Assembly: GCF_000008625.1 (NCBI RefSeq)
Contig: NC_000918.1
Coordinates: 420,001 to 452,000 of the forward strand
DNA length: 32,000 nt
Source of the DNA: Aquifex aeolicus VF5
GTDB taxonomy: Bacteria; Aquificota; Aquificia; Aquificales; Aquificaceae
Direction of reading: 5' to 3'
Below, piece by piece: positions 1,614 through 24,000 of this stretch. The translations under genes were made by a program, and so were the position numbers. The notes beneath the pieces were generated by a model. That model searched no databases and was not told where the DNA came from. It saw only the letters and a program-made list of their open reading frames with translations. The stretch's first letter is position 1. Each line of letters opens with the position of its first letter.

Positions 1614-2402
1614 TTACGACTTCGTCCAGAGGGACTTATTGCCGGAATACTCATAGGTGTATCCACTGCATTGACAGGAGTCTTTTTAATCTTGAGAAGG
1701 TACGCATTTCTGGGAGCGGGTCTCTCTCACGCTGCCTTCGGAGGCATAGCCCTCAGTTTCTTGCTGGGAACCGACGTATACTTAACTACCGTTATCTTTA
1801 CTATTCTGGTTGCGAACTTCGTCCAGTTTCTGACTCAAACAAAGAAAGTTCCCGGTGACACCGCAATTGCAGTTATTTTCTCAAGCGGTATGGCGCTCGC
1901 CGTAACCATTCTGGGAATTGTCAGGGGATTCGGTGAAAACCTCTTTTCGTACCTTTTCGGAAACATACTCATGGTTACGAAGGAAGAACTCTTCTACACG
2001 GCGGGTGTGTTTCTTATAACTCTGCTTTTTATAGGAATCTTTTACAAGAAACTCCTTCTCACAACGTTTTCCGAAGAAATGGCGAAGGTAAAGGGGATAA
2101 ACATATCCTTCCTGAATTACTCCTTTGTTACGCTCACGGCTCTCGTTGTGGTCGCAAGCATAAAGGCAGTAGGGGTAATACTTGCCTCTTCCTTAGTCGT
2201 AATTCCTGCGATGAGCGGTTTGATACTTGCAGGTTCCTTCTTGAGCAGTCTAATAATATCTTCGGTTGTTTCTACTCTTTCCGTTGTCCTCGGGATATAT
2301 ATTTCCTTCAATTACGACGTTCCGCCGAGCGGTTCGATAGTGGGAATAGCGATACTCCTCTTTCTAGCTTCCTTCTTACTGAGAAAGCTTCCTCTGAAGT
2401 AG
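1600..2402 (+). CDS. znuB: Metal ABC transporter permease (ZnuB-like), with an apparent frameshift near its 5-prime end
   Basis: The track ORF 1671..2402 (TTG start) is multi-TM and carries the LSHAAFGG region. ATG 1600 in another frame encodes MEFLSYDFVQR, a family-typical N-terminus. It joins the downstream frame (GLIAGILIGVSTALTGV...) if one G is added to GGG 1631-1633. Confidence 0.75.
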
Positions 2403-3338
2403 AACCTTGAACCTGTCTCCCATAGAGATAAGCATGGTCTTCAGTCTAGATAGCCTTTCCACACTCTCAGCACTCTCCTCCCAGCTCAGTTTCTCGAGTT
2501 CGTTCAAGAATGTTGGTATGTGCATCAAAAAGTCCCTCTGACTTTGGAAGAGAATAGTCTCAAGACCAAAGTCCCTTCCGTATTCCATGAGTGCGGAAAA
2601 ATTCACGTGTGCGGTTATGTCCGCGTTCCCAGCTTCCTTTAGAAAGTCCTTTACAACCTTGTGTTCTTTGTAGGCTACTACAGTCCCCTCAGGATACTTT
2701 GTTATTTCCTCGGAAGTGTACCCGTAATCTATCACGAAATGATAACCTTCAACAAGACTCTCGGAAATTTTCTTCAGCATATCTATACAGTCGAGACAAA
2801 CTTCCACAATCTGATTTAAGTTTTCGTAATTCATTCTCCTTAGGAATTCCTTTACCTTCTCGTTTTCTAAACTTAGCCACACTTCGCTTCCCTTTTCATC
2901 AACGTAAAGCTCCTTACCTCCCTTTACTATGTGAACAGGAAGGGCGTCAAAAAACTCATTTGAGAACACTATTCCTTCAACCTTCGGTAGCTCTTCTACC
3001 CATTCCACGTTTTTAAAGTTCTTTAAAACTTCTCTTTGCTTACTTATCAGGTAAGGACTGAACTCGTATATGTAATACTTTAATCTGTTGAAAAGATCCG
3101 GATAATTTGCCCTGTAGTAATTAAGGATGTCGTAAGCAAGCAGCCCTCTCCCGGCACCCAGTTCAACAAGGGCGGGTCTTTCAAACTCAGAAAGGTGCTG
3201 GGAAAAGAACTCGGCGAGTGCTTCGCCAAAAGCCCTGTCCAGTTCCGGAGCCGTAAAGAAGTCCTTTAAAGCCCTCTGGGAGGAGTAGTAATCCTTTACC
3301 GCTTTTTCCATAAAGTCTCTGAAACTGATAAAAGCCAT
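2376..3338 (-). CDS. SAM-dependent methyltransferase, MidA/NDUFAF7-like (DUF185 type)
   Basis: 320-aa ORF with the SAM-binding motif LVELGAGRGLLAYDIL and overall MidA-like layout (recalled family pattern). Its 3-prime end overlaps the convergent permease gene. Confidence 0.6.
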   Translation of the reverse strand: MAFISFRDFMEKAVKDYYSSQRALKDFFTAPELDRAFGEALAEFFSQHLSEFERPALVELGAGRGLLAYDILNYYRANYPDLFNRLKYYIYEFSPYLISKQREVLKNFKNVEWVEELPKVEGIVFSNEFFDALPVHIVKGGKELYVDEKGSEVWLSLENEKVKEFLRRMNYENLNQIVEVCLDCIDMLKKISESLVEGYHFVIDYGYTSEEITKYPEGTVVAYKEHKVVKDFLKEAGNADITAHVNFSALMEYGRDFGLETILFQSQRDFLMHIPTFLNELEKLSWEESAESVERLSRLKTMLISMGDRFKVLLQRKLSQ

Positions 3339-8193: not shown

Positions 8194-8469
8194 ATGGCGG
8201 TAATAGTGAGGATACCCACACCCTTGAGAAGGTTAACCAACGGTCAAGGTGAGGTTGAAGTTGAAGCAAAAAGTGTAAGGGAAGCTATTGAAAAGCTGGA
8301 AGAGCAGTTTCCCGGTATAAAGGAAAGGCTTGTGGACGAAAACGGTGAGCTCAGGAAGTTTGTAAATCTCTACGTAAACGACGAAGACATAAGGTTTTTA
8401 AAGGGGCTTGATACAGAACTAAAAGACGGAGATACCCTCTCAATTGTCCCCGCCATCGCCGGCGGTTAA
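8194..8469 (+). CDS. MoaD/ThiS-family sulfur-carrier protein (beta-grasp, C-terminal GG)
   Basis: 91 aa ending ...LSIVPAIAGG. The di-glycine terminus and size are typical of MoaD/ThiS/CysO-type carriers. Confidence 0.75.
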   Translation: MAVIVRIPTPLRRLTNGQGEVEVEAKSVREAIEKLEEQFPGIKERLVDENGELRKFVNLYVNDEDIRFLKGLDTELKDGDTLSIVPAIAGG

Positions 8470-11400
8470 GCCTCCTTTATTATTTCTTCCAATCCTTCAT
8501 TTTTAAGGAAGAAAACCTCGGAAATACCTCCCCTTGCACTCACGCCTACAATCTTATCCGCAAAGGAGGTCACAACTTCTCTTAAGGTTACCACTATAAA
8601 CTGGGCTTCTTTTGACTTTTCTCTTATCAACTCACCCACTTTCTTAGCGTTAACCTCGTCAAGGTGGGCGTCTACTTCGTCAAAGTAGTAAAATGGAGAA
8701 GGTTTGTACTCCTGAAGGGCAAATATAAGAGAAAGAGCTGCTAAAGTTTTCTCCCCTCCCGACATCGCTTCGAGGTACTGGACGTCTTTCCCCCTCGGTT
8801 TTACGGTTAACTGAACACCTCCCGAAAAGGGATCTTCGGGATTGTCCAAGAACATCTGAGCTTTACCTCCCGGTGAGAGAAAAGAGAATATCCTTTTCAG
8901 GCTTTTATTTATCTGGTTAAAGGCTTCTAAGAAGACTTTTCTCTTTTTGTTTTCCGTCTCTTCTATTAACTTCTTTATAGCTTTGCTCTCTTCCTTTAGT
9001 TTTTGTTGCTTTTCTTTGTAGTCGTTAAAGCGTTTTAATTCTTCCGCGTAGTCTTCCTCCGCCCTGAAGTTCACACTCCCCAGCTTTTGTATTTCTTCCG
9101 TAACTCTTTTTAACTTCTCTTTAAGCTTGGGAATACTTTCTTCATCCGCTCCGAGTTTTAAGTCCTCGTATTCTTTAAGTTCTTCGTTTAAGTTCTCTAT
9201 TTTTTCTTCTAGTACCTTAAGGTTTTTCTCTTTTTCAAAGATTTTCTCTTTTAATTCTTCTTCTTTTATTTTTAATTTTCCGAGTTTTGATTTTAAATTA
9301 AGTATTTCCTTCTCGAGTTCTTCCTTTTGTTTTATGTAATCGTAAACCTTTACCTCTGCTTCCTTTACTTCCTGTAAGGTTTTTTCTTTAAAAAGGATCA
9401 AGTTTTCTATTTCTTTCTTTAGAGACTTTATTCTTTCCGTCAGGTACTCTCTTTCCCTTTCTTTTTCCTGTATTTCTTTCTCCAAGTATTCAAGCTCGTA
9501 GGTTTTTTTATTCAGTTCCCTTTCAATTTCGTTTAAAGACTTTTCTATTTCTGAAACCTGTTTCCTTACCTTTGAGTACTCCCTCCTCTTTTCCTCAACC
9601 CCTTCTCTGGAGTAGTGCCTCTTTATATCTCCTTCTTTGAGCTTTAAATTATTCAGCTTCTCCTCGTAGTACTCTATTTCTTCCGCCAATTCCTTTAACT
9701 TATCTTCTACATTTAAAAGCTTTTCTTCGAGTATTTTTAAGTATTCTTTTGAATTTTCGAGCTTTTCTTTAAACTTTTCTTCGTATTGCTCTAAGCCTTC
9801 AGAAGATAGTTCTTCTATTTTCCTTTCACTTACCTTTAAAAGCGCTGTCTTTTCCGAAATTAAGTTTCTTATTTCCCTTATTTTTTTCTGGATTATGCTT
9901 TCTTCATTTTTGAGCTTTTCCTCTTCTGCATTTAGTCTCTGGAGTTCTTCTTCATAGTAGCGTTTATTGAGTTCTCCCGAAGGCTTTACGGCTCCTCCCG
10001 TAATCACACCGCTTTTTTCAAAAAGCTCGCCTTCAAGCGTTACCATTCTGTAATTCCCTATACCTATTGCCTTTGCACTTTCAAAGTTTTCAACTATCAG
10101 CGTGTCTCCGAAGACGAACTTAACGACTTTCTCAAACTTCGGATCGTACTCCACGAGGTTTACCGCAAAGTCCACAGCCCCCTTTGTCCTCGGATACCTG
10201 AGAGGTCTTTCCTCAACCCTGACTCTATTCAGGGGAATAAAACTAAACCTTCCTAAGTTCATTCTCTTTGCAAGTTGTATGCACTCCTTTGCAACCTCTT
10301 CGTCTTCTACAACTATGAACTTTAGCCTTCCCCCGCCGGCTACCTCTATGGCGGTTATGTGCTCTGGATTTTTGACCCTTATAAGTTCACTTACGCTTCC
10401 GTAAACGCCTTTAATATCTTTAAAAACATCTGAAACGTCCGAAAAACTTCTTACTTCCCTTTCTATCGCACCCTTTTCCTTGAGTACTTCTTCAAGTTTT
10501 TTCCTGACTTCGCTTAATCTTTTTTCGTAAATGTTGAGTTCTTGCGTGAGATTTCTTAACTCTTCTTCTTCTTTCTTTTTAATTGCTTTTAGCCTTTTGA
10601 TTTCCTGTTCCTTTTCCTTAATTTCCTTGATTTTCTCTTCTCTTTCCGATATTAACTTGTTTATATCTTCCTTTATCCTTTCTATTTTGTTTTTTAAGTT
10701 TGCTCTTTGAATTTCTAACTCTTGTTTTTCTTTGTTAAGAGAGTTCAATTTTTCCGTTAATTTCTCCTTTTCTTCTTCAAGTTTTTTAACCTCGTCGAAG
10801 GTTATCTTTAGTCTTTCTTCTTCTTCTTCAAGTTCTCTCAATTTTTCCCTCTCAACTTCTTTTAAAGACTTATACTCTTCTTTGAGTTTTTCGAGTTCAA
10901 GTTGTAAAGTTCCTACCTCTCTTTCAAGATTTTCCTTATCACTCAAAAGGTTGTTTATTAATTCTTCAAGATTTTTAACTCTATTTTCGCTCTCTTTTAA
11001 TTCCCTTTCTTTTTCCTTTATACTCCTCTCTGCGTTTTCAATTTCCGCGGTAAACTTTCCCACTTTTTCTTTGAAGGGCATTATCTTTTCGTTTACTTCC
11101 TTTAAAAGTCTTTCTCTTTCATTTAATTCCTTTTCATTTTCCTGTATTTGGAAAGTTATATCTTCCAAACTTTCTCTCAAGGAGCTGAGTTCGTTTAAAA
11201 TTCTTTCCCTTTCTTTCAGGAGTTTTTCCTTTTCTTTTAGAAGTATTTTTGCTTCTGTTTCCCTCTTTATCCTTTGTAGTTCCTTAAATTTCTCAAGTTT
11301 TTCTTTTTCTTCCTTTAGTCTTTTCAATTGATTAGATATCTCTTCGAGTATGAGGTCTATTTCCTTTATTTTCAGTTCTACTTCCGCGAGTTCTTCTAAG

Positions 11401-11936
11401 GCTTTTTCCTTTTTCCTCTCGTATTCCCCTATTCCCGAAATTTCTTCAATTATTTTCCTCCTCTCTACGGGAGTCATCTTAAGGAACTTGACGATGTCTC
11501 CCTGATACACCACGTTGTAAGCGGTCTCGTATATACCCGCTTTTGCGAGGAAATCCTTCAAATCCCTCTCTCTTACTACCTGACCGTTTATTTTGAAAAT
11601 GCTCCTTCCGTCTTTTGAAACCTTTCTGGATATTACAACTTCTTCATCTTCTACAGGAAACGCTCCTAGGTTTTTGAAGTGAACTTCCACGTAGGCGTGA
11701 TCTGCTTTCTGACCGTTTTTGGAAAAAATTAAGTAACTTAAGTTCTTTGCCCTGAGTGCTTTTGCACTGCTAAGCCCGAGTGCAAAGGATATTGCGTCCC
11801 CTATGTTACTTTTTCCCGCACCGTTCGGGCCTACTACCGCTATAAATCCTTCACCGAGAGGTATTTCTTTCCTTTTTGTCCCGTAGGATTTAAATCCCTC
11901 CACTACTATCTTTTCTATGTACGCCCTTTTTTCCAT
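8466..11936 (-). CDS. smc: Chromosome partition protein SMC
   Basis: 1156 aa. N-terminal Walker A GPNGAGKSN, two long K/E-rich coiled coils flanking a hinge (GVYGSVSELIRV...), signature MSGGEKT and Walker B FYYFDEVDAHLD. Confidence 0.95.
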   Translation of the reverse strand: MEKRAYIEKIVVEGFKSYGTKRKEIPLGEGFIAVVGPNGAGKSNIGDAISFALGLSSAKALRAKNLSYLIFSKNGQKADHAYVEVHFKNLGAFPVEDEEVVISRKVSKDGRSIFKINGQVVRERDLKDFLAKAGIYETAYNVVYQGDIVKFLKMTPVERRKIIEEISGIGEYERKKEKALEELAEVELKIKEIDLILEEISNQLKRLKEEKEKLEKFKELQRIKRETEAKILLKEKEKLLKERERILNELSSLRESLEDITFQIQENEKELNERERLLKEVNEKIMPFKEKVGKFTAEIENAERSIKEKERELKESENRVKNLEELINNLLSDKENLEREVGTLQLELEKLKEEYKSLKEVEREKLRELEEEEERLKITFDEVKKLEEEKEKLTEKLNSLNKEKQELEIQRANLKNKIERIKEDINKLISEREEKIKEIKEKEQEIKRLKAIKKKEEEELRNLTQELNIYEKRLSEVRKKLEEVLKEKGAIEREVRSFSDVSDVFKDIKGVYGSVSELIRVKNPEHITAIEVAGGGRLKFIVVEDEEVAKECIQLAKRMNLGRFSFIPLNRVRVEERPLRYPRTKGAVDFAVNLVEYDPKFEKVVKFVFGDTLIVENFESAKAIGIGNYRMVTLEGELFEKSGVITGGAVKPSGELNKRYYEEELQRLNAEEEKLKNEESIIQKKIREIRNLISEKTALLKVSERKIEELSSEGLEQYEEKFKEKLENSKEYLKILEEKLLNVEDKLKELAEEIEYYEEKLNNLKLKEGDIKRHYSREGVEEKRREYSKVRKQVSEIEKSLNEIERELNKKTYELEYLEKEIQEKEREREYLTERIKSLKKEIENLILFKEKTLQEVKEAEVKVYDYIKQKEELEKEILNLKSKLGKLKIKEEELKEKIFEKEKNLKVLEEKIENLNEELKEYEDLKLGADEESIPKLKEKLKRVTEEIQKLGSVNFRAEEDYAEELKRFNDYKEKQQKLKEESKAIKKLIEETENKKRKVFLEAFNQINKSLKRIFSFLSPGGKAQMFLDNPEDPFSGGVQLTVKPRGKDVQYLEAMSGGEKTLAALSLIFALQEYKPSPFYYFDEVDAHLDEVNAKKVGELIREKSKEAQFIVVTLREVVTSFADKIVGVSARGGISEVFFLKNEGLEEIIKEA

Positions 11937-13159: not shown

Positions 13160-15748
<2,589 letters not shown>

Positions 15749-15760
15749 AAAATTAATTTT

Positions 15761-15931
15761 ATGGTAGACAAAGAACTTCTCGAAATTCTCGCCTGTCCGA
15801 AGTGTAAGGGTGATTTAAAGTATGAGGAGGAAAAGGAAATCCTTATATGTGAAAAGTGTAAGGTTTATTACGAAATAAAGGAGGGGATACCTATACTTCT
15901 GCCCGAGTCTGCGAAACCTCTTTCAGGATAA
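15761..15931 (+). CDS. Trm112/YcaR-like (UPF0434) zinc-ribbon mini-protein, 56 aa; too short to appear in the ORF track
   Basis: My translation: MVDKELLEILACPKCKGDLKYEEEKEILICEKCKVYYEIKEGIPILLPESAKPLSG, stop TAA 15929-15931. It has two CxxC pairs and the family-typical LACP...GIP(I/V)(L/M)L pattern. Confidence 0.7.
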   Translation: MVDKELLEILACPKCKGDLKYEEEKEILICEKCKVYYEIKEGIPILLPESAKPLSG

Positions 15932-16256
15932 TTTCCTTTAATTCTTCTTCCCGATCCGTTGAGTAATCTGAAGGTATATCTTCTTGAAAGACCTTTTTAA
16001 AGTGAACGAACTTAACAGGTTTCCTGTACATCTTCCTGTAAGAGTAAACCATTTCCCAGTCCGCGTTGTTGTCACCGATGTAGAGTCCTTCCTGAGCACC
16101 GAGCATTTCCATACAGAGGTGAAGGGGGTAAGGGTGGGGCTTCCTTAAGTTCGGGTCTCCCACCTCGTCCTCGTCTATTATCGCTTCAAAGTACTTCCAA
16201 AGGTCAAACCTGTCAAAGAGGTACTTCAAATCCCTTCTCGGTCTTCCCGTGACCAC
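15891..16256 (-). CDS. HAD-superfamily hydrolase, C-terminal fragment (motifs II-IV)
   Basis: Begins VTGRPRR (motif II T/S-G) and contains K...GDNNADWEM (motifs III/IV). It is separated from the N-terminal fragment by an 11-bp tandem duplication. Confidence 0.7.
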   Translation of the reverse strand: MVTGRPRRDLKYLFDRFDLWKYFEAIIDEDEVGDPNLRKPHPYPLHLCMEMLGAQEGLYIGDNNADWEMVYSYRKMYRKPVKFVHFKKVFQEDIPSDYSTDREEELKEIILKEVSQTRAEV

Positions 16257-16579
16257 GCCATAACCACGCCATTTCTCTTCAAGCTTTCAAAGAACTCGGG
16301 TTTTAGTATTAACTCTTCTTTGTCTTTTAATTTGTCGTAATAGCCTTCGAAAACTTCTACGAGTTCCTTGTAATCCGGCGGTTTGTAGCCGAGGTTCTTT
16401 ATTAATTCGTAAGTAACGTCCCAGTCGTTGTTTATTCCGTTTTTAAATTTAAACTCCCGGATGTACGAAAGTTCCAGTTCTCTTCCGGTGAAGTGCTTTA
16501 TGGTTTCCTTTATTGCGTGGTGATAGGAATTCCTCACGTCTACAATTACTCCGTCCACGTCAAATATAGCTGCTTTCAT
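16226..16579 (-). CDS. HAD-superfamily hydrolase, N-terminal fragment (motif I plus cap)
   Basis: MKAAIFDVDGVIVDV is HAD motif I (DxDG). The ORF runs into the duplication at 16252-16273 and stops out of frame at 16226. Confidence 0.7.
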   Translation of the reverse strand: MKAAIFDVDGVIVDVRNSYHHAIKETIKHFTGRELELSYIREFKFKNGINNDWDVTYELIKNLGYKPPDYKELVEVFEGYYDKLKDKEELILKPEFFESLKRNGVVMAWSREDREGI

Positions 16580-17487
16580 ACCGTGAGCTCCACCTCTTTT
16601 GTTTTCTCAAGTAAGTACTGTATGAAGTTGCTCGCCAAGAAAGTGATAGTACTGTTTTTTGGATAAATTATGTGGAATCTCCTCTTTATTTCAAAACCTT
16701 TAATCTTAACGACTACTAAATTTCCCGCTTTTATTTCTCCGTTCAGTAATCCTTTAGACAGGAAAGAGCATCCGTAACCGTTTTTTACTATCTGTATTAT
16801 GTTTCTGCTGCTTGTTGATTCGATTTTTATGTTCAATTTATCGAACATTATTCCGAGTTCTTCGAGCTTTTCCCTCACGAGTTTCCTCGTTCCCGAGTGG
16901 GCTTCCCTCATAACGAGATCCAGTTCGTAAAGCCTTTCCGGTTCTATTTCTCCCTCCTTTGCTATCGGGTGTTCGGGATAAGTGAAAAATACTATCTCGT
17001 CCTCTAAAAAGGGAATATCAACGAATTTATCAGAAGGCTTTCTCTCTATTATTCCCACGTTCAGAACTCCGGAAACGAGTCCTTCTTCAACGTCGTGAGA
17101 GTTTCCCGTAAATATCTTTATCTTGGAACTTGGAAATTCCTTGTGAAATTCCGCTATTATCTTCGGGATTATGTACTCGCTGGGGGTTGCGCTGAGAACG
17201 AGGAATAGCGTATCTTTCAAATCTTTCTTTATCCTCGCTATTTCTTCCATAAGTCCTTCGTAACTGTTTAAAAGGAGTTTTGCTATTTCGTATATTCTCT
17301 TTCCCTCTTCAGTCAGGACCATCCTTCCGCCCTGTCTCTGGAAGAGTTTGGCTCCTACTGTTTTTTCCAGAGCTTTTATCTGCTGTGTTACTGCTGGTTG
17401 AGTTATGTATAAAACCTCCGATGCTTTTGAAAAACTTCCCAGCTCCGCGACGGTAACAAAAGTCTTGAGCTTAGAAATATCAATCAT
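16576..17487 (-). CDS. LysR-family transcriptional regulator
   Basis: 303 aa. N-terminal wHTH FSKASEVLYITQPAVTQQIKALE plus a C-terminal substrate-binding domain of typical length. It overlaps the HAD gene start by 4 nt. Confidence 0.9.
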   Translation of the reverse strand: MIDISKLKTFVTVAELGSFSKASEVLYITQPAVTQQIKALEKTVGAKLFQRQGGRMVLTEEGKRIYEIAKLLLNSYEGLMEEIARIKKDLKDTLFLVLSATPSEYIIPKIIAEFHKEFPSSKIKIFTGNSHDVEEGLVSGVLNVGIIERKPSDKFVDIPFLEDEIVFFTYPEHPIAKEGEIEPERLYELDLVMREAHSGTRKLVREKLEELGIMFDKLNIKIESTSSRNIIQIVKNGYGCSFLSKGLLNGEIKAGNLVVVKIKGFEIKRRFHIIYPKNSTITFLASNFIQYLLEKTKEVELTV

Positions 17488-17498
17488 CCTTATTAATT

Positions 17499-17513
17499 TT
17501 ATACCTCGGATAA
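17499..17513. promoter_or_regulatory. Candidate LysR-type box TTAT-N7-ATAA (T-N11-A class)
   Basis: TTATACCTCGGATAA lies 12 nt upstream of the lysR start. It has dyad arms TTAT/ATAA. The site is short and AT-rich, so it could occur by chance. Confidence 0.2.
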
Positions 17514-17557
17514 GAAATGTTTATGAGGGTTATAAAAAAGAAAAATGGAGAGAAAGA

Positions 17558-17938
17558 TTACCAGGTGAGAACTCTTCCCGCCTGACCGAGCGAAGGAAGT
17601 GCCTGGCTGGGTGTTAAAAGCGGTACGTCAAAGGCTAAGTCTTCCTTTGTCATTCCGTTGAGTTCTAAGGACTGGAGACATCCGACGAACTGAACACCGT
17701 TGTCCAATGCGAGTTCCATAAAGTCCTTGATGGTATTTCCTTCTTCCATGGGACGTATGCTTTCCGCAACGCCTTTCTTGAGAAGGAGTGTAGCTGGTCC
17801 GGTGAAGTACATGACCACGTTCATGTCAGCAGCAGCAGCGGTTGAAGCGAGGAAGAAAGCAGATGGAAGTCTCTTAGGATTTTCGGGACCTGTTATTAAT
17901 ATGATTACAAGATCAGCAGCTTGTTGTTGTTCGCTCAT
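17558..17938 (-). CDS. DsrE/DsrF-like sulfur-relay family protein
   Basis: 126 aa. The pattern LVIILITGP...FFLASTAAAADMNVVMYFTGP...VGCLQSL matches the DsrE-like fold with a conserved Cys (recalled pattern). An AAGGAGGTG SD precedes the ATG. Confidence 0.55.
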   Translation of the reverse strand: MSEQQQAADLVIILITGPENPKRLPSAFFLASTAAAADMNVVMYFTGPATLLLKKGVAESIRPMEEGNTIKDFMELALDNGVQFVGCLQSLELNGMTKEDLAFDVPLLTPSQALPSLGQAGRVLTW

Positions 17939-18037
17939 TCTTTCACCTCCTTAATAAGGAGTTTAATATATAAGAATGTTTAAAATCATCTAAAAAGATT
18001 TAATGGTAGTATAAACGGAACTTATAAAATACTTTCT

Positions 18038-18991
18038 TTGATGAAAATCTACTTAATGGGCTCGGACCAGAGGATAGTTAGGTGTGCGAGGGTGTCCTTT
18101 GCAAAGGACTCATATGTCGATGAAAAGAGGGACAAAAGACTCATTCGCTACCTCTTCAAGCACAGGCACGCGTCTCCCTTTGAGCACAACATCATTGCCT
18201 TTGAGTGGAAAAAGGAGAAGTGGATAGAACTCCTTTCAAAGCTGGAAAACCCTACCGTTCAGGTTTACTACTCAAATGGCTTTGTTTTTCTTAACTTAAG
18301 GAACGCTATCAACGTATGGGAACTTTTGCCCGACGCAGTCAAAGAAAGGATAAAGGAGGCTTTTCCTACCACTTACGGAGTAATTCAGCGGAGAGGGGAA
18401 ATTGAGGATGAGGAACTTTATTCCCTTCCCTACACTAAAGATAAAGCTTACGTAAAGGAAAAGATTGAGACGAGTTCTGGCTGGATCGGGCTTGTTGATA
18501 AGCTGGAACTGGAAACTGATATGGATTTTTACACTTTTGTGGTTGAATGCCCTCTTTTTGTAGCCCGTCAGTGGATGAGGCACAGGTTCGGCTCTTACAA
18601 CGAGGTTTCTAAAAGGTACGTGGGAAAGGAGTTTCTGGAATTTTATCTCCCTAAATACATAAGAAAGCAAGCGGAGAAAAACAAACAGGCTTCTGTGGAT
18701 GAACCTATTTCTGAGAGTGAAGTTTTTATAAAAAAAATAGAAAATTTGATAAGCAAAAGCGTAAAGCTCTACGAGGAGATAATAGAAAAGGGCGGTGCAA
18801 AAGAGCTCGCAAGGGGAGTGCTTCCCCAGTTTATGAAAACGAGGTTTTACTGGACCGTTCCGAGGATTTCTCTTGACAACTTCATAACCCTCAGAACTCA
18901 CGAAGGTGCACAAAAAGAGATAAGGGAATTTGCAGAAGCTATAAAGGAAATGGTAGGATACAGGGGAACTGATAAGAAGAACGTCATTTAA
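18038..18991 (+). CDS. thyX: Flavin-dependent thymidylate synthase ThyX (unusually long)
   Basis: ThyX signature RHRFGSYNEVSKRY (RHRxxSxxxxSxR), plus ARVSF...SPFEH and a C-terminal R..HEGAQ.EIR. The track start is TTG 18038. ATG 18041 is an equally likely start. Confidence 0.85.
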   Translation: MMKIYLMGSDQRIVRCARVSFAKDSYVDEKRDKRLIRYLFKHRHASPFEHNIIAFEWKKEKWIELLSKLENPTVQVYYSNGFVFLNLRNAINVWELLPDAVKERIKEAFPTTYGVIQRRGEIEDEELYSLPYTKDKAYVKEKIETSSGWIGLVDKLELETDMDFYTFVVECPLFVARQWMRHRFGSYNEVSKRYVGKEFLEFYLPKYIRKQAEKNKQASVDEPISESEVFIKKIENLISKSVKLYEEIIEKGGAKELARGVLPQFMKTRFYWTVPRISLDNFITLRTHEGAQKEIREFAEAIKEMVGYRGTDKKNVI

Positions 18992-19002
18992 AATTTGCTC
19001 TA

Positions 19003-20085
19003 TCAAGAAATCCCTTGAGTTCTTACAATTTTCTCTTTTTCGTCAACTTCAAAAATCTTTCCCAGAAACTGTTCACAAACCCATATATTTGTGAGGAGAT
19101 GCCCGGTAAACTGAGGAACTCTTATCTCACCTCCGACCAGAGCCATCAGAGGTATCAAGTGGTCCGCAAGGTGTCTGTCAACGGTGGCACCGGAGCTCCA
19201 GTCTTCGTGTAATTTTTTTACGGCCTCTGCTCCCACAACCTCTGCAAGCTTTCCCTTTTTACCCAGGTTATCCGCACCGAGAACGTTTCCTTTAGTGTCT
19301 TCAAGCCAGATGGTTATGCTCGTTCCTATTGAGTTTGCGTTTGCGTACTGTCTGTAAACCTCTGGTTCAGGGTAGCCTAAGTTTTTTAGAGCTTCTATAG
19401 CTCCCTTTGCCTGCCTTTCCGCCACTTTCCTTTCCCTTAACTCTTCGTGAGCCACGGAAAACACGTGAATTTTTCTAATCTCTCCTCTCTCAGTTCTGTA
19501 AAGGTTAACTTTATCTTTCAGGTATTCCTTCACTTCTTGTAAGTTTTCCGGCTGTTTTTCTAATTTGTTCCTTACGCTTAATTGGACAATCCCGCCACCC
19601 GCAGGGTAAAAGCCTCTCTTTAAAACTTCAAGTCTGATAAATTCGGGAACTTTGTAGATGTAGTGGAGAAATACGAACCTCACCCAGTCTATTGTCGGAC
19701 TTTTTGGTACGTCCGTTCCACCGATAACCTTTATCACTACTTCTCCGGGAACGAAAAGGGAGAGCGGAAGAATGGTTTGCAAGAAAAGAGGAATAGAACC
19801 TGCGGTGTCAAAGTTCACTTCGTAATAACCCGGTTTTAACTTTTGAGGTTTGTATTCAAGCTCAATAGAGCCGAGTTCGTCTCCCTTCACCTTTGCCTTT
19901 GCAAATCTTTTGAGAAGTTTTACTATGTTTAGGTGTTGTCTCTTGAGTCCAGGTTTTTCCCTTTTTGCCCTTATGTTGTAAATCCTTACGGGAACCTGTA
20001 GGAGTGTGCTTAAAAATAATGCCGTTCTTACTATCTGCCCTCCGCCTTCTCCGTACGAGCCGTCAAGCTCCAGAAACTCTCCCAT
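19003..20085 (-). CDS. rtcA: RNA 3-prime-terminal phosphate cyclase
   Basis: 360 aa. N-terminal [20 protein letters not shown] and the catalytic-His region [10 protein letters not shown] are typical of RtcA. Confidence 0.88.
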
Positions 20086-20090
20086 CTCCC

Positions 20091-20774
20091 TTAAATGTAT
20101 CTTCCTTCACTTTCCATTATTACTCTTATAACGTTTCCCTCCTTTTCAATTTTAGAAACTTTGTAGTCGTAGAAGTTTATCTTCTCAAGGGAATTCAGGT
20201 CCACGTTTTTCTCGACTATGTACCTCAGGGTGTAGGCCCTGTGAGGCATAGGGTTTACCACCTTCTTACCTTTTCTTATGTAATCAAACCTCACGAAGGT
20301 AACGTCTTCAGGGAAGGTTAGTGTTTCCCTCTGCTCTGTCGTTAAAAAGTCAAAAATTACAGAACTTTCAAACATCTTTTTAGATATGTCCTTTAAAACC
20401 TCTTTCCAGAACTCCGTTAGCTTTTTTCCTTTGTACTTGTCCTGAAAGGTTACCGAGTACCTCGGTATTGGGTCATTGACTCCGAGCATGCCAAAAAGCG
20501 GAGATATTATAATTCCCCTGTCTATTATGTTTTGTTGAACTTCGGGCGGAAGACACCAAAACTCAAGACTGTCCCAGAATTTCCCATTATACCTCCTCCA
20601 CGCGGGAGCAAGGGGTTTAGTTTCTACCTTGAAGTACTCTATTAATTCCTTTCTATAGGGATTCAGTTCAGGGAACCTGTTCTTTTCCCTGTTTTCCCAT
20701 ATTGAGAAGTAGTCCTCCTTTACGAGGTCCATCGTGGACTGCTTTTTCTCCGAAGGAAGCAGGTAAAAAATCAT
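20091..20774 (-). CDS. YaaA/DUF328-like (UPF0246) protein
   Basis: 227 aa. [30 protein letters not shown] and [13 protein letters not shown] parallel E. coli YaaA segments (MLSGLYGVLRPLD..PYRLEM, LYQFWGD, KKARGLMSRFIIE) recalled from memory. Confidence 0.5.
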
Positions 20775-20820
20775 GAGATTTATTTTAGCCCAAAAGAAGG
20801 CATGTTAAAATTTCCCTAAG

Positions 20821-22143
20821 ATGGAGCTTCACTTTGCGGATGAGCCATTAAAGGTAAGCGAAGAGATAAATAAAAGTATACTGGAAACACTCCAAGAGAA
20901 AGAACAAATAGAAGTTCGTGGGGATTACATAATATTTAAAAACTTTACTGGAGTTGTAGGAGATTGTTTGGTAATTCCACGAAAACTCGCAGAACACTTT
21001 AAGCTAATCAACGAAAGTGGTGAAAAAACGCAGAACTTTTACGAAAGGTATAAAGAATTATTTGGAAAATTCTTAAAGTATATCCTGAAAAAACTTGCTA
21101 AAGAGCACATAATTTATACCCTTAGCTTGTCCAGTTTTCCCGTTGATGAGAGTAAACTAAACGAAAGTAAAATCTTTAAACTCCTGGTTCTCTTAGAGAA
21201 AAAAGAAGAACTTATAAATTCCCTGCGTTTAATTTTGTCTATTCCGCACAAAAACTTGGTTGAATACGAAACTTATAAAAGTTTAAACGAGGTTAGTTAT
21301 GTTGATTCAAATGTAATTATTGATATAGTTCAGAATCCGGAAAAACTTTACGAAACGGAAAAGGGGATAATAGAACACGAAGGAAAGAGGTATTCCCCTA
21401 CCGCGGTTCTTCAATATGAGTTTGAGGAAAGTTTTGATACTCCAGAAAACAGGTTCGTTAAACACTTATTAAAGGAACTTGAAATCCTTTTGTCTGAAGA
21501 GCTAAAGGATTTCTTCTTCTTAGAAGAATTAAAAGAAATAAAAGAAGAAATAGAGTATACACTCCGGTCGGATGTATTTTCCGAAGTGGGAGACTTAAAC
21601 TTTTTCCCTTCAAATTCTCAGGTTTTGATGAAAAAAGCAGGATACAGGGAACTCTTCCAGATTTACAGGCTCTTGCACCTGTCCTTTGTTCCTAGAATTT
21701 TTGAAGATTTAGATTTAGCGTTCTCATTAAAAGATATGGCAACACTTTGGGAGTACTACGTTTTAATAGAGATTTTAAGGGAATTTAAAGAAAAGTTTGG
21801 AACTTACAAAGTGATAATTGATTTTGAGGAAAAAGTAGAAGGTAAAACGGTTTACGAAGAGGCACAGTTTAAATTTGAGAATGATTTAATCTTGTATTAT
21901 CAAAAGAGTCTTTATGCTTATTCTGGTTTACGCTTCAGACCGGATTTTTACGTGAAATTCAAAGACAACAGATTTATATTTGATGCAAAATTCAGGATAT
22001 TTGAAAATAATGAAAAGGATTTGCTTCAAAATATGCACTATTACAGAGACGGATTAAAAGTTACATCTGCCGTTGCTGTATGTTTTGGAGAAAAGAACAA
22101 AAGAGTTCTTTTTGGAAGACGGATGGAAGTAAAGAATCAATAA
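20821..22143 (+). CDS. McrC-like PD-(D/E)xK nuclease (DUF2357/DUF524-type architecture); the C-terminus probably continues to 22232 after a frameshift
   Basis: 440-aa ORF. Nuclease core RPDFYVKF...FIFDAKFR (D375, D388-A-K390), then MHYYRD. DTPENRFVKHLL is typical of McrC-like partners. Frame 0 stays open from about 22071 to TAA 22230-22232, overlapping the next ATG. Confidence 0.65.
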   Translation: MELHFADEPLKVSEEINKSILETLQEKEQIEVRGDYIIFKNFTGVVGDCLVIPRKLAEHFKLINESGEKTQNFYERYKELFGKFLKYILKKLAKEHIIYTLSLSSFPVDESKLNESKIFKLLVLLEKKEELINSLRLILSIPHKNLVEYETYKSLNEVSYVDSNVIIDIVQNPEKLYETEKGIIEHEGKRYSPTAVLQYEFEESFDTPENRFVKHLLKELEILLSEELKDFFFLEELKEIKEEIEYTLRSDVFSEVGDLNFFPSNSQVLMKKAGYRELFQIYRLLHLSFVPRIFEDLDLAFSLKDMATLWEYYVLIEILREFKEKFGTYKVIIDFEEKVEGKTVYEEAQFKFENDLILYYQKSLYAYSGLRFRPDFYVKFKDNRFIFDAKFRIFENNEKDLLQNMHYYRDGLKVTSAVAVCFGEKNKRVLFGRRMEVKNQ

Positions 22144-22222
22144 ATTTATTTTCTGAATTAATAGAAAATAATTTTGACGGAGTAGGGTATATTGATTTAA
22201 AATTAGATATGGGGGATTTTAA

Positions 22223-22543
22223 ATGGAACTAAAACCTAAGTTCATTATAAAGATAACTTCCAAATCATTGGAAAATTTCAGAAAAACCGTATTAGAAGGT
22301 ATTGAAAAGGAAGGAGAAAAGAAGTATTTTTGGAATATCTACAGTTATTGTGGAAATTTTAATTCAAATGATGTAGTATTATTTATTGCTGAAAAACATC
22401 CAGCTGTACTCGGACAAATTATAAAAACAGCGAATGGTGATGAATTTTATAATGAACGTTTAAAGAAAGAATGGAAAGATAAAAAGGGTAGATTTAAAGC
22501 ATATTTTGAATTTAAAAAAAATAAAAGAAATAAGTCTTCCTGA
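22223..22543 (+). CDS. Small ORF, probably the detached N-terminal (possible PUA-like reader) domain of the McrB-like NTPase
   Basis: 106 aa. It ends 22 nt after an A8 run (22514-22521), where removing 1 nt fuses it in frame to ORF 22506..23915. NDVVLFIAEKHPAVLGQI and ...AYFEFKK(I)KEISLP loosely resemble EVE/ASCH-type beta-barrels. Confidence 0.5.
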   Translation: MELKPKFIIKITSKSLENFRKTVLEGIEKEGEKKYFWNIYSYCGNFNSNDVVLFIAEKHPAVLGQIIKTANGDEFYNERLKKEWKDKKGRFKAYFEFKKNKRNKSS

Positions 22544-23915
22544 GGAAATTACAAAAAGTCTGTTATCGGAACATCAAGGCAGGAGAGTGTGTAAAAAATT
22601 TGATCAATTTTCAAAAGAAAATCAAGAAAAACTTTTAAATTTCCTTTCAAAGGAAATCTCAAATATGCAGGAAGCTACAAGAATAGAAACAGGCCAACAG
22701 GAAAAAGGAACTTGCTTAAAAAATTCTTCTTTAAAGTTAGATAGTCATATCGTAAACTCTTTCTACAACGCCTTAAAGACAAAAGGTTTCGTAATACTTG
22801 CAGGACTTTCTGGAACAGGAAAAACTAAGATTTTTGAAGAATTTGTAAAGTGTTTTCCCGAAAATCACAATCTCTTCTTCCCCATTCGTCCTGACTTTAA
22901 AGACTCTAAATCTCTACTCGGATATTACAACCCACTAAAAGGAGAATACCATTCAACTCCCTTGTTAGAATTCATTTTGGAAGCTTCAAAGAACTACCTA
23001 GAAAAAGGTAAAAATGCGGACACATTTTTCGTATTGTTTGACGAAATGAATTTAGCGAGAGTTGAGTATTATTTTGCAGACTTTTTATCAGTTTTAGAGG
23101 CAAAAAGATTTGAAAATAAAGATGAAGCAGTTAAAACTAATAGTTTTAATGAGTTTTTAGAAAGCTTAGAAAAAGATTTATCAGTATTAAACGAAGAAAA
23201 CTATAAATTTACATCTCAAAGCATAAAACTACACAACGAAGATACAAAAGACGTTCCAAAAGAACTATTTTTACCACCAAACCTTTATTTTATTGGGACG
23301 GTCAATATTGATGAAACTACTTACATGTTTTCTCCAAAAGTTTTGGATAGAGCATTTACAATAGAGTTTGACGTCGGAAGTTTTAAAGATTATTTAGAAT
23401 TTTTAAAAGCAAATTCAGATGATGAGAATTCAAACATAGATGAAAATCTGAAAGAAGATTTTATTAATAAAGGTGAGTTTGCAGTTATTGACAAACAAAA
23501 GATAAAAGAATTCTTTGAAAATGAAGAAAATAAAAAATATTTAAAAGATCTTGAGGAAATAAATAATACTCTAAAAAGGTTTGGTTTACATTTCGGATAC
23601 CGTGTATTTGACGAGATTGTTATGTTCCTGTATAACTCACAAAACTCCTACTTTAAATTTGAAAACTTAGATGAAGCGTTTGATTTGGCCGTTAAAATGA
23701 AAGTTCTTCCCAAGTTCCACGGAACAAGGCAAAGATTAGAAAAGCCTGTTGTTGAATTACTCAACAAACTTGGTGTGAAAAACCCTGAAGAAAAAATTAC
23801 AGATGGAATACCGCCAATAGATGAAATTGCTGAAACTCAATTCAAACACACAGTTCACAAACTCCTAGAAATGTTTTACAAACTGAAAACTCAGGGATTT
23901 GCTTCCTTCTTATGA
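22506..23915 (+). CDS. McrB-like AAA+ (AAA_5/COG1401-type) NTPase
   Basis: Walker A GLSGTGKTK. RPDFKDSKSLLGYYNP...Y.STPLLEF. Walker B with the McrB-type extension FFVLFDEMNLARVEYYFADFLSVLE. FIGTVNIDETT...PKVLDRAFTIEF parallels the McrB GTMNxxDRS...RRF region. The track start is TTG, inside the previous ORF. Confidence 0.7.
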   Translation: MNLKKIKEISLPEEITKSLLSEHQGRRVCKKFDQFSKENQEKLLNFLSKEISNMQEATRIETGQQEKGTCLKNSSLKLDSHIVNSFYNALKTKGFVILAGLSGTGKTKIFEEFVKCFPENHNLFFPIRPDFKDSKSLLGYYNPLKGEYHSTPLLEFILEASKNYLEKGKNADTFFVLFDEMNLARVEYYFADFLSVLEAKRFENKDEAVKTNSFNEFLESLEKDLSVLNEENYKFTSQSIKLHNEDTKDVPKELFLPPNLYFIGTVNIDETTYMFSPKVLDRAFTIEFDVGSFKDYLEFLKANSDDENSNIDENLKEDFINKGEFAVIDKQKIKEFFENEENKKYLKDLEEINNTLKRFGLHFGYRVFDEIVMFLYNSQNSYFKFENLDEAFDLAVKMKVLPKFHGTRQRLEKPVVELLNKLGVKNPEEKITDGIPPIDEIAETQFKHTVHKLLEMFYKLKTQGFASFL

Positions 23916-23923
23916 AGATTAAG

Positions 23924-24000
23924 TGGTGTGCCCGGCGGGACTCGAACCCGCGACCTCGAGATTAGGAATCTCGCGCTCTATCCGCCTGAGCTACGGGCAC
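23924..24000 (-). tRNA. tRNA-Arg (anticodon CCU), CCA encoded
   Basis: The reverse complement folds as a cloverleaf: GTGCCCG TA GCTC AGGCGGATA GAGC G CGAGA TTCCTAA TCTCG AGGTC GCGGG TTCGAGT CCCGC CGGGCAC A CCA. Confidence 0.93.

Follow-up and report, generated by a model that had tools for sequence, protein, structure and literature searches.

A frameshifted, probably acquired McrBC-type gene pair beside tRNA-Arg(CCU) in Aquifex aeolicus VF5

The DNA considered here is a stretch of 32,000 nucleotides of the Aquifex aeolicus VF5 genome (NC_000918.1, positions 420,001 to 452,000 of the forward strand), hereafter called the window. It holds an AT-rich islet, bordered by a YaaA-like gene on one side and by the 3' end of tRNA-Arg(CCU) on the other, with three co-directional open reading frames (ORFs) on the plus strand, at 20821-22143 (440 amino acids, aa), 22223-22543 (106 aa) and 22506-23915 (469 aa). 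An earlier note, made from the letters of this DNA alone, had described three ORFs of the same lengths and had read them as a split, three-gene module in the order nuclease, reader and NTPase. They belong to two genes, one for an McrC-type nuclease and one of the McrB family, and the three-gene appearance is a frameshift artefact. We consider it likely, with a probability of about 0.75, that the islet is a horizontally acquired and decaying two-gene cassette for McrBC-type restriction dependent on nucleoside triphosphates (NTP), and that it belongs to the DUF524/'NxD' subfamily.

Genes and domains of the islet

The McrB-family gene encodes 563 aa once a single A is removed from a run of eight (A8), a deletion that fuses the two ORFs of 106 and 469 aa. 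The repaired protein aligns from its first to its last residue with homologues of 559-612 aa (Desulfurobacterium, metagenomes and Methanocaldococcus) over 95-100% of its length, and the alignment spans the junction (FEFK-KIKEISL in the window, YIELK-KIKEVK in a homologue). Because of this end-to-end alignment the 106-aa ORF (WP_164930632.1, 'hypothetical protein') is identified as the N-terminal domain of the McrB-like protein, from which the extra A has cut it, and the separate reader gene of the earlier note falls away. The 469-aa ORF is recorded as AAC06851.1 / WP_010880385.1 (aq_647, COG1401, 'McrB family protein'). The 563-aa protein consists of an alpha/beta N-terminal domain of 100 aa, the GTPase and, between the two, a linker of about 70 aa.

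Judged by its motifs and profile matches, the GTPase is a member of the McrB family with the NxD(E) variant of the signature. In an hhalign comparison with E. coli McrB (probability 94.3%, E = 9.8e-8, 164 columns), GLSGTGKT and FVLFDEMN align with GPPGVGKT and IIDEIN, and the signature asparagine N361 aligns with the asparagine of NTAD. GLSGTGKT and FVLFDEMN are invariant in seven close full-length homologues and recur in most of 84 relatives, 70 of which keep N-x-D-(E/D)-T. Among the PADLOC models the only strong match of the GTPase ORF was the candidate model PDC-M26A (E = 1e-49), the best stretch covering only profile positions 310-434 of 724; PDC-M26 was not found in the literature searched. 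Two McrB homologues, P0206 (about 30 aa) and P0005 (about 190 aa), have insertions within the GTPase domain right after Walker A, which fits the remark of the McrBC census (PMC11090510) that extra modules are often found inserted into the GTPase domain of McrB proteins. In the window protein the only insert is shorter, about 50 aa long, and is placed between Walker B and the NxD motif.

The first gene of the islet encodes an McrC-type nuclease of the DUF2357 + DUF524 kind. The 440-aa ORF (AAC06850.1 / WP_010880384.1, 'DUF2357 domain-containing protein' in RefSeq) matches Pfam DUF2357 (PF09823) with E = 2.1e-66 and 224 bits (cut-off 23.3) over profile positions 2-251 of 251, and Pfam PDDEXK_7 below its cut-off (15.3 vs 22.1). 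E311, P374, D375, D388, A389 and K390 are invariant across 56-57 homologues, and 90% or more of them keep M405, H406, Y408 and D410. The corresponding motifs, E, PD, DAK and MHxYRD, are the motifs I-IV that define DUF524 (PF04411, COG1700) (PMC1913061). Just before the stop of this ORF a 50-aa ORF begins in the next frame (22080-22232), encoding the conserved C-terminus of the family with its nearly invariant GxGY, and the repaired nuclease of 470 aa aligns end to end with homologues of 474-542 aa.

The AlphaFold2 (AF2) model of the nuclease was made on the 440-aa ORF as written. It reached a predicted local distance difference test score (pLDDT) of 88.4 and a predicted template modelling score (pTM) of 0.80, and shows a beta region at the N-terminus, a helical bundle and a nuclease domain of alpha-beta5-alpha-beta topology, whereas residues 426-440, the out-of-frame tail, are disordered. 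The only Foldseek matches of this model at E <= 1e-3 were YdjA of the B. subtilis BsuMI system (9a5m_A, E = 5.7e-6) and E. coli McrC from two cryo-electron microscopy complexes (6ut6_G, E = 2.8e-4, and 6hz4_M, E = 9.3e-4, both with probability 0.99). The template modelling (TM) scores of these matches were low (0.17-0.27), as expected with an elongated multi-domain protein. At the sequence level, hhalign of the McrC-like profile with E. coli McrC gave only a non-significant 15-residue DTxxNRxxK patch, and the nuclease ORF matched none of the PADLOC models. The McrBC-like identity that the earlier note had proposed is borne out by the DUF2357 match, the DUF524 motifs, the McrC-type Foldseek matches, the hhalign alignment with McrB and the PDC-M26A match, and the motifs that it had quoted (RPDF...FDAKFR, GLSGTGKT, FDEMN and GTVNIDETT) are all present.

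The N-terminal domain of the McrB-like protein is rare. A profile of its first 100 residues or so found no more than five cluster representatives in a set of 1.84 billion proteins, and every copy found lies either at the N-terminus of an McrB homologue or after a DUF2357 gene at a contig end. The sole apparently free-standing copy (P0207) stands behind a DUF2357 gene and is truncated where its contig ends. The domain had no match in Pfam, nor in Foldseek at E <= 1e-3 against the PDB and viral libraries. ASCH/PUA-like proteins turned up repeatedly among the weak top Foldseek matches (YqfB, the N-domain of ATP sulfurylase, TTHA0113 and several viral ASCH proteins; TM 0.4-0.5), hhalign with YqfB gave a probability of 1.4%, and the best AF2 model had a pLDDT of 79.7, the other four staying at or below 57. 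The domain is presumed to be a DNA-reader or specificity module, for which a PUA-like reader would be a reasonable guess. A bolder proposal, which we regard as improbable, would make it an unclassified PUA/ASCH-like base-flipping reader giving a new DNA-modification specificity, with transcriptional slippage on the A8 run providing a low dose of full-length protein beside the reader-less GTPase, as with McrB-L and McrB-S of E. coli. If this were true, a base-flipping N-terminal domain would bring a new DNA-modification specificity to a thermophile-restricted McrBC lineage. The practical value of the locus is small. Should an intact relative be characterised, such as that of Desulfurobacterium or that of Methanocaldococcus, this rare domain could become a useful thermostable specificity module.

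Table 1. Position of the genes, domains and lesions of the islet and of its borders in the window
Feature	Position	Strand	Remarks
Divergent intergenic region, 46 bp	20775..20820	.	between YaaA-like gene (-) and McrC-like gene (+); drop in G+C starts here
McrC-like gene	20821..22232	+	DUF2357 N-terminal domain + DUF524-type PD-(D/E)xK nuclease; 470 aa after G restored; as written stops at 22143 (440 aa)
Nuclease catalytic motifs	21751..22050	+	E311 (21751-21753), P374-D375 (21940-21945), D388-A-K390 (21982-21990), M405-H-Y-Y-R-D410 (22033-22050)
1-nt G deletion	22104..22105	+	G vs GG in sister L086; frame shift, last ~40 residues lost
McrB-family gene	22223..23915	+	563 aa after one A removed; annotated as two ORFs
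N-terminal domain, ~100 aa	22223..22519	+	beta-alpha-beta4-alpha-beta; invariant W37 and W84; in no Pfam family
A8 run with +1 insertion	22514..22521	+	parts reader domain from GTPase
AAA+ GTPase core	22803..23315	+	Walker A GLSGTGKT (22803-22826), Walker B DEMN (23040-23051), signature N361-I-D363-E364 (23304-23315)
tRNA-Arg(CCU), anticodon CCT in DNA	23924..24000	-	mere neighbour; no evidence for a role as integration site

Relatives, gene order and acquisition

The pairing of DUF524 (COG1700) with COG1401 was reported in 2007 (Knizewski et al., PMC1913061), the DUF524 type was set apart in 2008 as a distinct and uncharacterised McrBC subfamily (Fukuda et al., PMC2614495), and the subfamily is covered by the McrBC census of 2024 (Bell, Makarova, Wolf and Koonin, PMC11090510). 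The locus belongs to this long-predicted and biochemically unstudied subfamily and is no new kind of defence system. The suggestion that it might be an undescribed one is thus not sustained, two of the three ORFs being already named in RefSeq. In the same census DUF2357 is the N-terminal domain of McrC, which contacts and activates McrB, and the NxD branch has no characterised member, carries a signature usually followed by E or D and is often associated with methyltransferases (PMC11090510). The Aquifex accessions were not found in the supplementary files of that census. What is added here is modest and consists of the corrected gene structure, two verified lesions with their sister-strain variants, the clade-wide nuclease-first order and the rarity of the N-terminal domain.

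The Aquifex pair shares with the DUF524 + COG1401 subfamily the N-terminal beta-then-helical region (now DUF2357), the four motifs, the alpha-beta5-alpha-beta fold and the adjoining McrB-type GTPase. It does not differ from it in kind, although both of its genes are frameshifted and its GTPase carries the rare N-terminal domain. With the non-coiled-coil part of the NxD branch it has in common the N-I-D followed by E and the DUF2357-type McrC partner. Its membership of this branch is read from the motif only, and its operon has no methyltransferase, two-component system or coiled-coil. Like McrBC of E. coli K-12 (EcoKMcrBC) it comprises two subunits, one with reader and AAA+ GTPase and the other with the PD-(D/E)xK nuclease, and the McrC fold matches. 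However, the mcrC-like gene comes first in Aquifex, NxD(E) takes the place of NxxD as the signature, the reader is unrelated to DUF3578/ADAM and no sequence similarity is detectable between the McrC proteins. The PcaIAB, LlaJI and BsuMI (YdiS-YdjA) systems are likewise built from a DUF2357/McrC-like nuclease and an AAA+ GTPase; PcaIB is annotated as DUF2357, and the best structural match is YdjA. They come with cognate methyltransferases and cleave DNA that is unmodified, whereas no methyltransferase accompanies the Aquifex cassette or its close relatives.

The earlier note had described the gene order as the reverse of the canonical one. The nuclease gene does come first, but this is the rule in the clade and not a peculiarity of the locus. 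The DUF2357 gene precedes the McrB gene in Desulfurobacterium, where the intact pair occupies L001:384-3501, and in Methanocaldococcus and Nitratiruptor, and among the 53 metagenomic loci with both partners detected the nuclease lies upstream on the same strand in 43, mostly overlapping the McrB start. The canonical order was seen in nine loci, chiefly of the most distant relatives, and the nuclease is on the opposite strand in one; in 15 further loci without a detectable nuclease gene the contig breaks off within 1.2 kb on the upstream side of McrB. The 43 loci and the three genera together make the nuclease-first order a clade trait and document it as the norm in the DUF524/NxD McrBC clade. 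In Nitratiruptor tergarcus (L003:10242-18178) an intact cassette has a two-component system as its neighbour, and an RT-Cas1/Cas2/Cas6 CRISPR locus lies about 5 kb away from it. This setting is defence-island-like; the Aquifex locus has no such setting.

The islet stands out from its surroundings in base composition. Its G+C content of 0.312, against 0.420 outside it and 0.410 for the whole window, is the minimum among all windows of 3149 bp and deviates from eight non-overlapping flank windows by z = -5.1. The G+C content at third codon positions of its two large ORFs is 0.33 and 0.25, whereas most other genes of the window lie at 0.44-0.52. The islet is a compositional outlier, and the 60-nucleotide counts given in the earlier note were exact (15/60 at 23401-23460 and 30/60 at 13561-13620). 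In each of the four hosts examined, the cassette has a higher A+T content than the DNA on either side. The closest McrB homologues, with 56-75% identity, are from Campylobacterota, Desulfurobacteriaceae and Persephonella (Hydrogenothermaceae), the archaeal ones show 39-47% identity, and plasmid-borne relatives occur, for example on the 54-kb plasmid of Thermococcus barophilus MP (NC_015471.1). The AT-richness in four hosts, the spread of homologues across phyla and archaea and the plasmid-borne relatives argue for a mobile cassette, an AT-rich two-gene unit that travels among vent thermophiles of several phyla and archaea. This points to horizontal acquisition by A. aeolicus, which would have been the recipient.

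The view of the islet as acquired DNA at a tRNA 3' end is upheld for its position and its outlying composition, but no integrase ORF was found in the islet, and near the distal border (about 20775) neither a direct repeat of the tRNA 3' end nor any other repeat from the tRNA of at least 11 nucleotides was found. Of the marks of a tRNA-targeted integrative island, the compositional one alone is present. A 13-nucleotide match to the T-arm of the tRNA, CGGGTTCGAGTCC, occurs at 15625-15637, inside a low-molecular-weight phosphatase (LMWPc/ArsC-like) ORF at 15320-15748, most likely by chance. The islet is not next to mqnE in five other Aquificaceae contigs.

Reality of the lesions and activity of the cassette

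Both frameshifts are real and are carried by independent read assemblies. Contig L004, from the independent run SRR29904085, is 100% identical to window 18506-23979 (5474 bp), both lesion sites included, and a second run (SRR29904083) gave identical gene calls of 440, 106 and 469 aa. A contig of a sister strain, L086 (ERR15087784), is equivalent to window 16127-23090 and shows 99.9% identity over 6966 aligned positions, with four substitutions and three indels. All three indels are homopolymer-associated; compared with the window, two of them restore reading frames and the third disrupts one. At about 22104 L086 has GG, which restores ...GEKNKRGSFWKTDG... and the conserved tail (the counterpart in Nitratiruptor is ...KEGKFWK...), and for this reason the lesion of the window nuclease gene is taken as a G deletion beside the T5 run and not inside it. 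A repair by addition of a T to this run was superseded by the G insertion that L086 indicates. Of the homopolymer frameshifts that the earlier note had assigned to both genes, the one of the McrB gene (A8) therefore stands, and that of the nuclease gene is replaced by the missing G at about 22104/22105.

L086 has in addition A5 where the window has A6 (21088-21093), which splits its nuclease gene into 96 + 368 aa, and the A8 run is common to the window and to the contigs from three further sequencing runs, L086 included. The simplest history would be that the McrB gene decayed first, in the common ancestor, and the McrC gene then independently in two lineages. For the annotation this means that WP_164930632.1 is the detached N-terminal domain of the aq_647 protein, and that aq_647 and its DUF2357 neighbour are both frameshifted.

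In intact relatives the McrC-like subunit consists of the DUF2357 domain followed by the PD-(D/E)xK nuclease. The McrB-like subunit, translationally coupled to it, consists of the small presumed reader domain, the linker and the AAA+ GTPase. If E. coli McrBC is taken as the model, the reader domain would bind a DNA feature, the GTPase would assemble a hexameric ring, the DUF2357 domain of the nuclease subunit would plug into the ring and stimulate NTP hydrolysis and DNA translocation, and the PD-(D/E)xK domain would then cut the DNA. With only two genes and no companions, the cassette would rather have a type IV-like role; the mechanism and a DNA target are inferred from the homology with McrBC.

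Given this identity, the cassette is rather probably inactive in VF5. Its reader domain is detached, the 469-aa GTPase ORF has a poor start (TTG, without Shine-Dalgarno sequence) and the nuclease is without its conserved C-terminus of about 40 residues; with both genes disrupted, an active defence system would be unlikely in this strain.

Several points weigh against a decaying, acquired McrBC-type cassette. The 440-aa nuclease ORF retains all catalytic motifs and, in the model, the core fold, so that the truncated nuclease may keep some residual activity. Homologues of McrB with the GTPase only (370-420 aa) are among the family members listed, some of them maybe cut by contig ends, and the 469-aa ORF might be functional if translated. 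RNA polymerase slippage on the A8 run could yield some full-length McrB mRNA, and the A5 call of L086 could be an assembly error. As to identity, the Pfam AAA_5 score of 21.2 is just below the cut-off of 22.0, phmmer of the repaired McrB against the PDB sequences found nothing relevant, and neither did the McrC profile against all PDB chains. As to acquisition, an empty site could not be demonstrated in the closest Aquifex metagenome-assembled genome (90% identity) or in four Aquificaceae contigs found with mqnE as query, because these contigs lose synteny exactly upstream of mqnE and have no tRNA-Arg there.

That the frameshifts are mere errors of the 1998 reference sequence, the genes being intact in the organism, is very hard to believe. 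Both are single-nucleotide indels in or next to homopolymers, and a third 1-nucleotide difference near 16258, absent in L086, also splits a gene for a HAD hydrolase, but L004 is identical through both sites, the second run has the same three ORFs and L086 too carries A8. It is also unlikely that the locus is active as written, either naturally split into a free reader, a GTPase and a nuclease, or switched or lowly expressed through slippage on A8 (phase variation, transcriptional slippage or +1 recoding). The break does sit exactly at the domain boundary, within a homopolymer, the 106-aa ORF has a good Shine-Dalgarno sequence (GGGGGA), McrB-S of E. coli is naturally short and without the DNA-binding domain according to its record annotation, and the short GTPase-only homologues would be in line with this. 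Nevertheless, the A8 run shows no length polymorphism between the window and the contigs of the three further runs, as phase variation would demand, intact homologues have no A-run at this place (Desulfurobacterium L001 has CTAAAAATACTAAAAATT) and the split architecture is conserved nowhere else, P0207 as the apparent exception being cut by its contig end. Moreover, the 469-aa ORF starts poorly, as described, and the nuclease gene is independently frameshifted at a site that is not a homopolymer.

Two further alternatives concern the kind of system. The intact enzyme might not have been of type IV but similar to LlaJI, BsuMI or PcaI, cutting unmodified sites, with a methyltransferase elsewhere whose loss forced the inactivation of the nuclease. 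PcaIAB (a DUF2357 subunit with an AAA+ GTPase) was found by experiment to restrict DNA that is unmethylated (PMC8989522), YdjA of BsuMI is the best structural match, methyltransferases are frequent companions of NxD-branch systems (PMC11090510) and counter-selection would account for the independent lesions of the two near-identical strains. We hold this to be rather unlikely, since two genes standing on their own are the pattern of type IV and no DNA methyltransferase lies in the 32-kb window or beside the intact cassettes of Methanocaldococcus and Nitratiruptor; the methyltransferase that neighbours the Desulfurobacterium cassette is a generic class-I enzyme on the opposite strand. An RNA-targeting system of the CoCoNuT type, also of the NxD branch, shares the NxD(E) GTPase signature and yet has next to no chance of being what is encoded here. 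There is no coiled-coil, for which the 563 aa in all leave no room at the length required, the two genes include no HEPN, cold-shock or second nuclease gene, and the PD-(D/E)xK catalytic residues are intact and not inactivated. A decaying McrBC-type cassette of two genes remains our preferred explanation.

Surroundings of the islet

The upstream flank of the islet is the YaaA-like gene at 20091-20774 on the minus strand (Pfam H2O2_YaaD, E = 7e-15), and at the other end the last stop codon of the islet is separated by 8 nucleotides from the 3' end of tRNA-Arg. This tRNA was the sole match accepted in the Rfam scan. A 'Plastid-ycf2 5UTR' match opposite to it, at 23926-24000 on the plus strand, was rejected as spurious, its 37 bits falling short of the gathering score of 65.7. 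The strand opposite to the islet ORFs has none of more than 52 aa, and a promoter and terminator scan gave sites not above the chance expectation.

The remaining genes of the window are all housekeeping genes. The only methyltransferase domain among them is Methyltransf_28 at 2376-3338, which we take to be a non-DNA methyltransferase. A second AT-rich stretch, at 9-11.5 kb (G+C 0.32-0.36), corresponds to the coiled-coil region of an SMC protein gene (8466-11936, minus strand) and is not foreign DNA.

Both independent Logan contigs with the islet end inside tRNA-Arg, about 64 nucleotides beyond the McrB stop (window 23916-23979), which is probably an assembly-graph break. The HAD-family hydrolase gene mentioned above (15891-16579, minus strand) is split in the window into ORFs of 117 and 121 aa. 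Near 16258 L086, the one comparison contig for this site, which is outside the reach of L004, has CCC where the window has CC and calls one gene of 229 aa, so that this is another apparent 1-nucleotide frameshift in the VF5 window.

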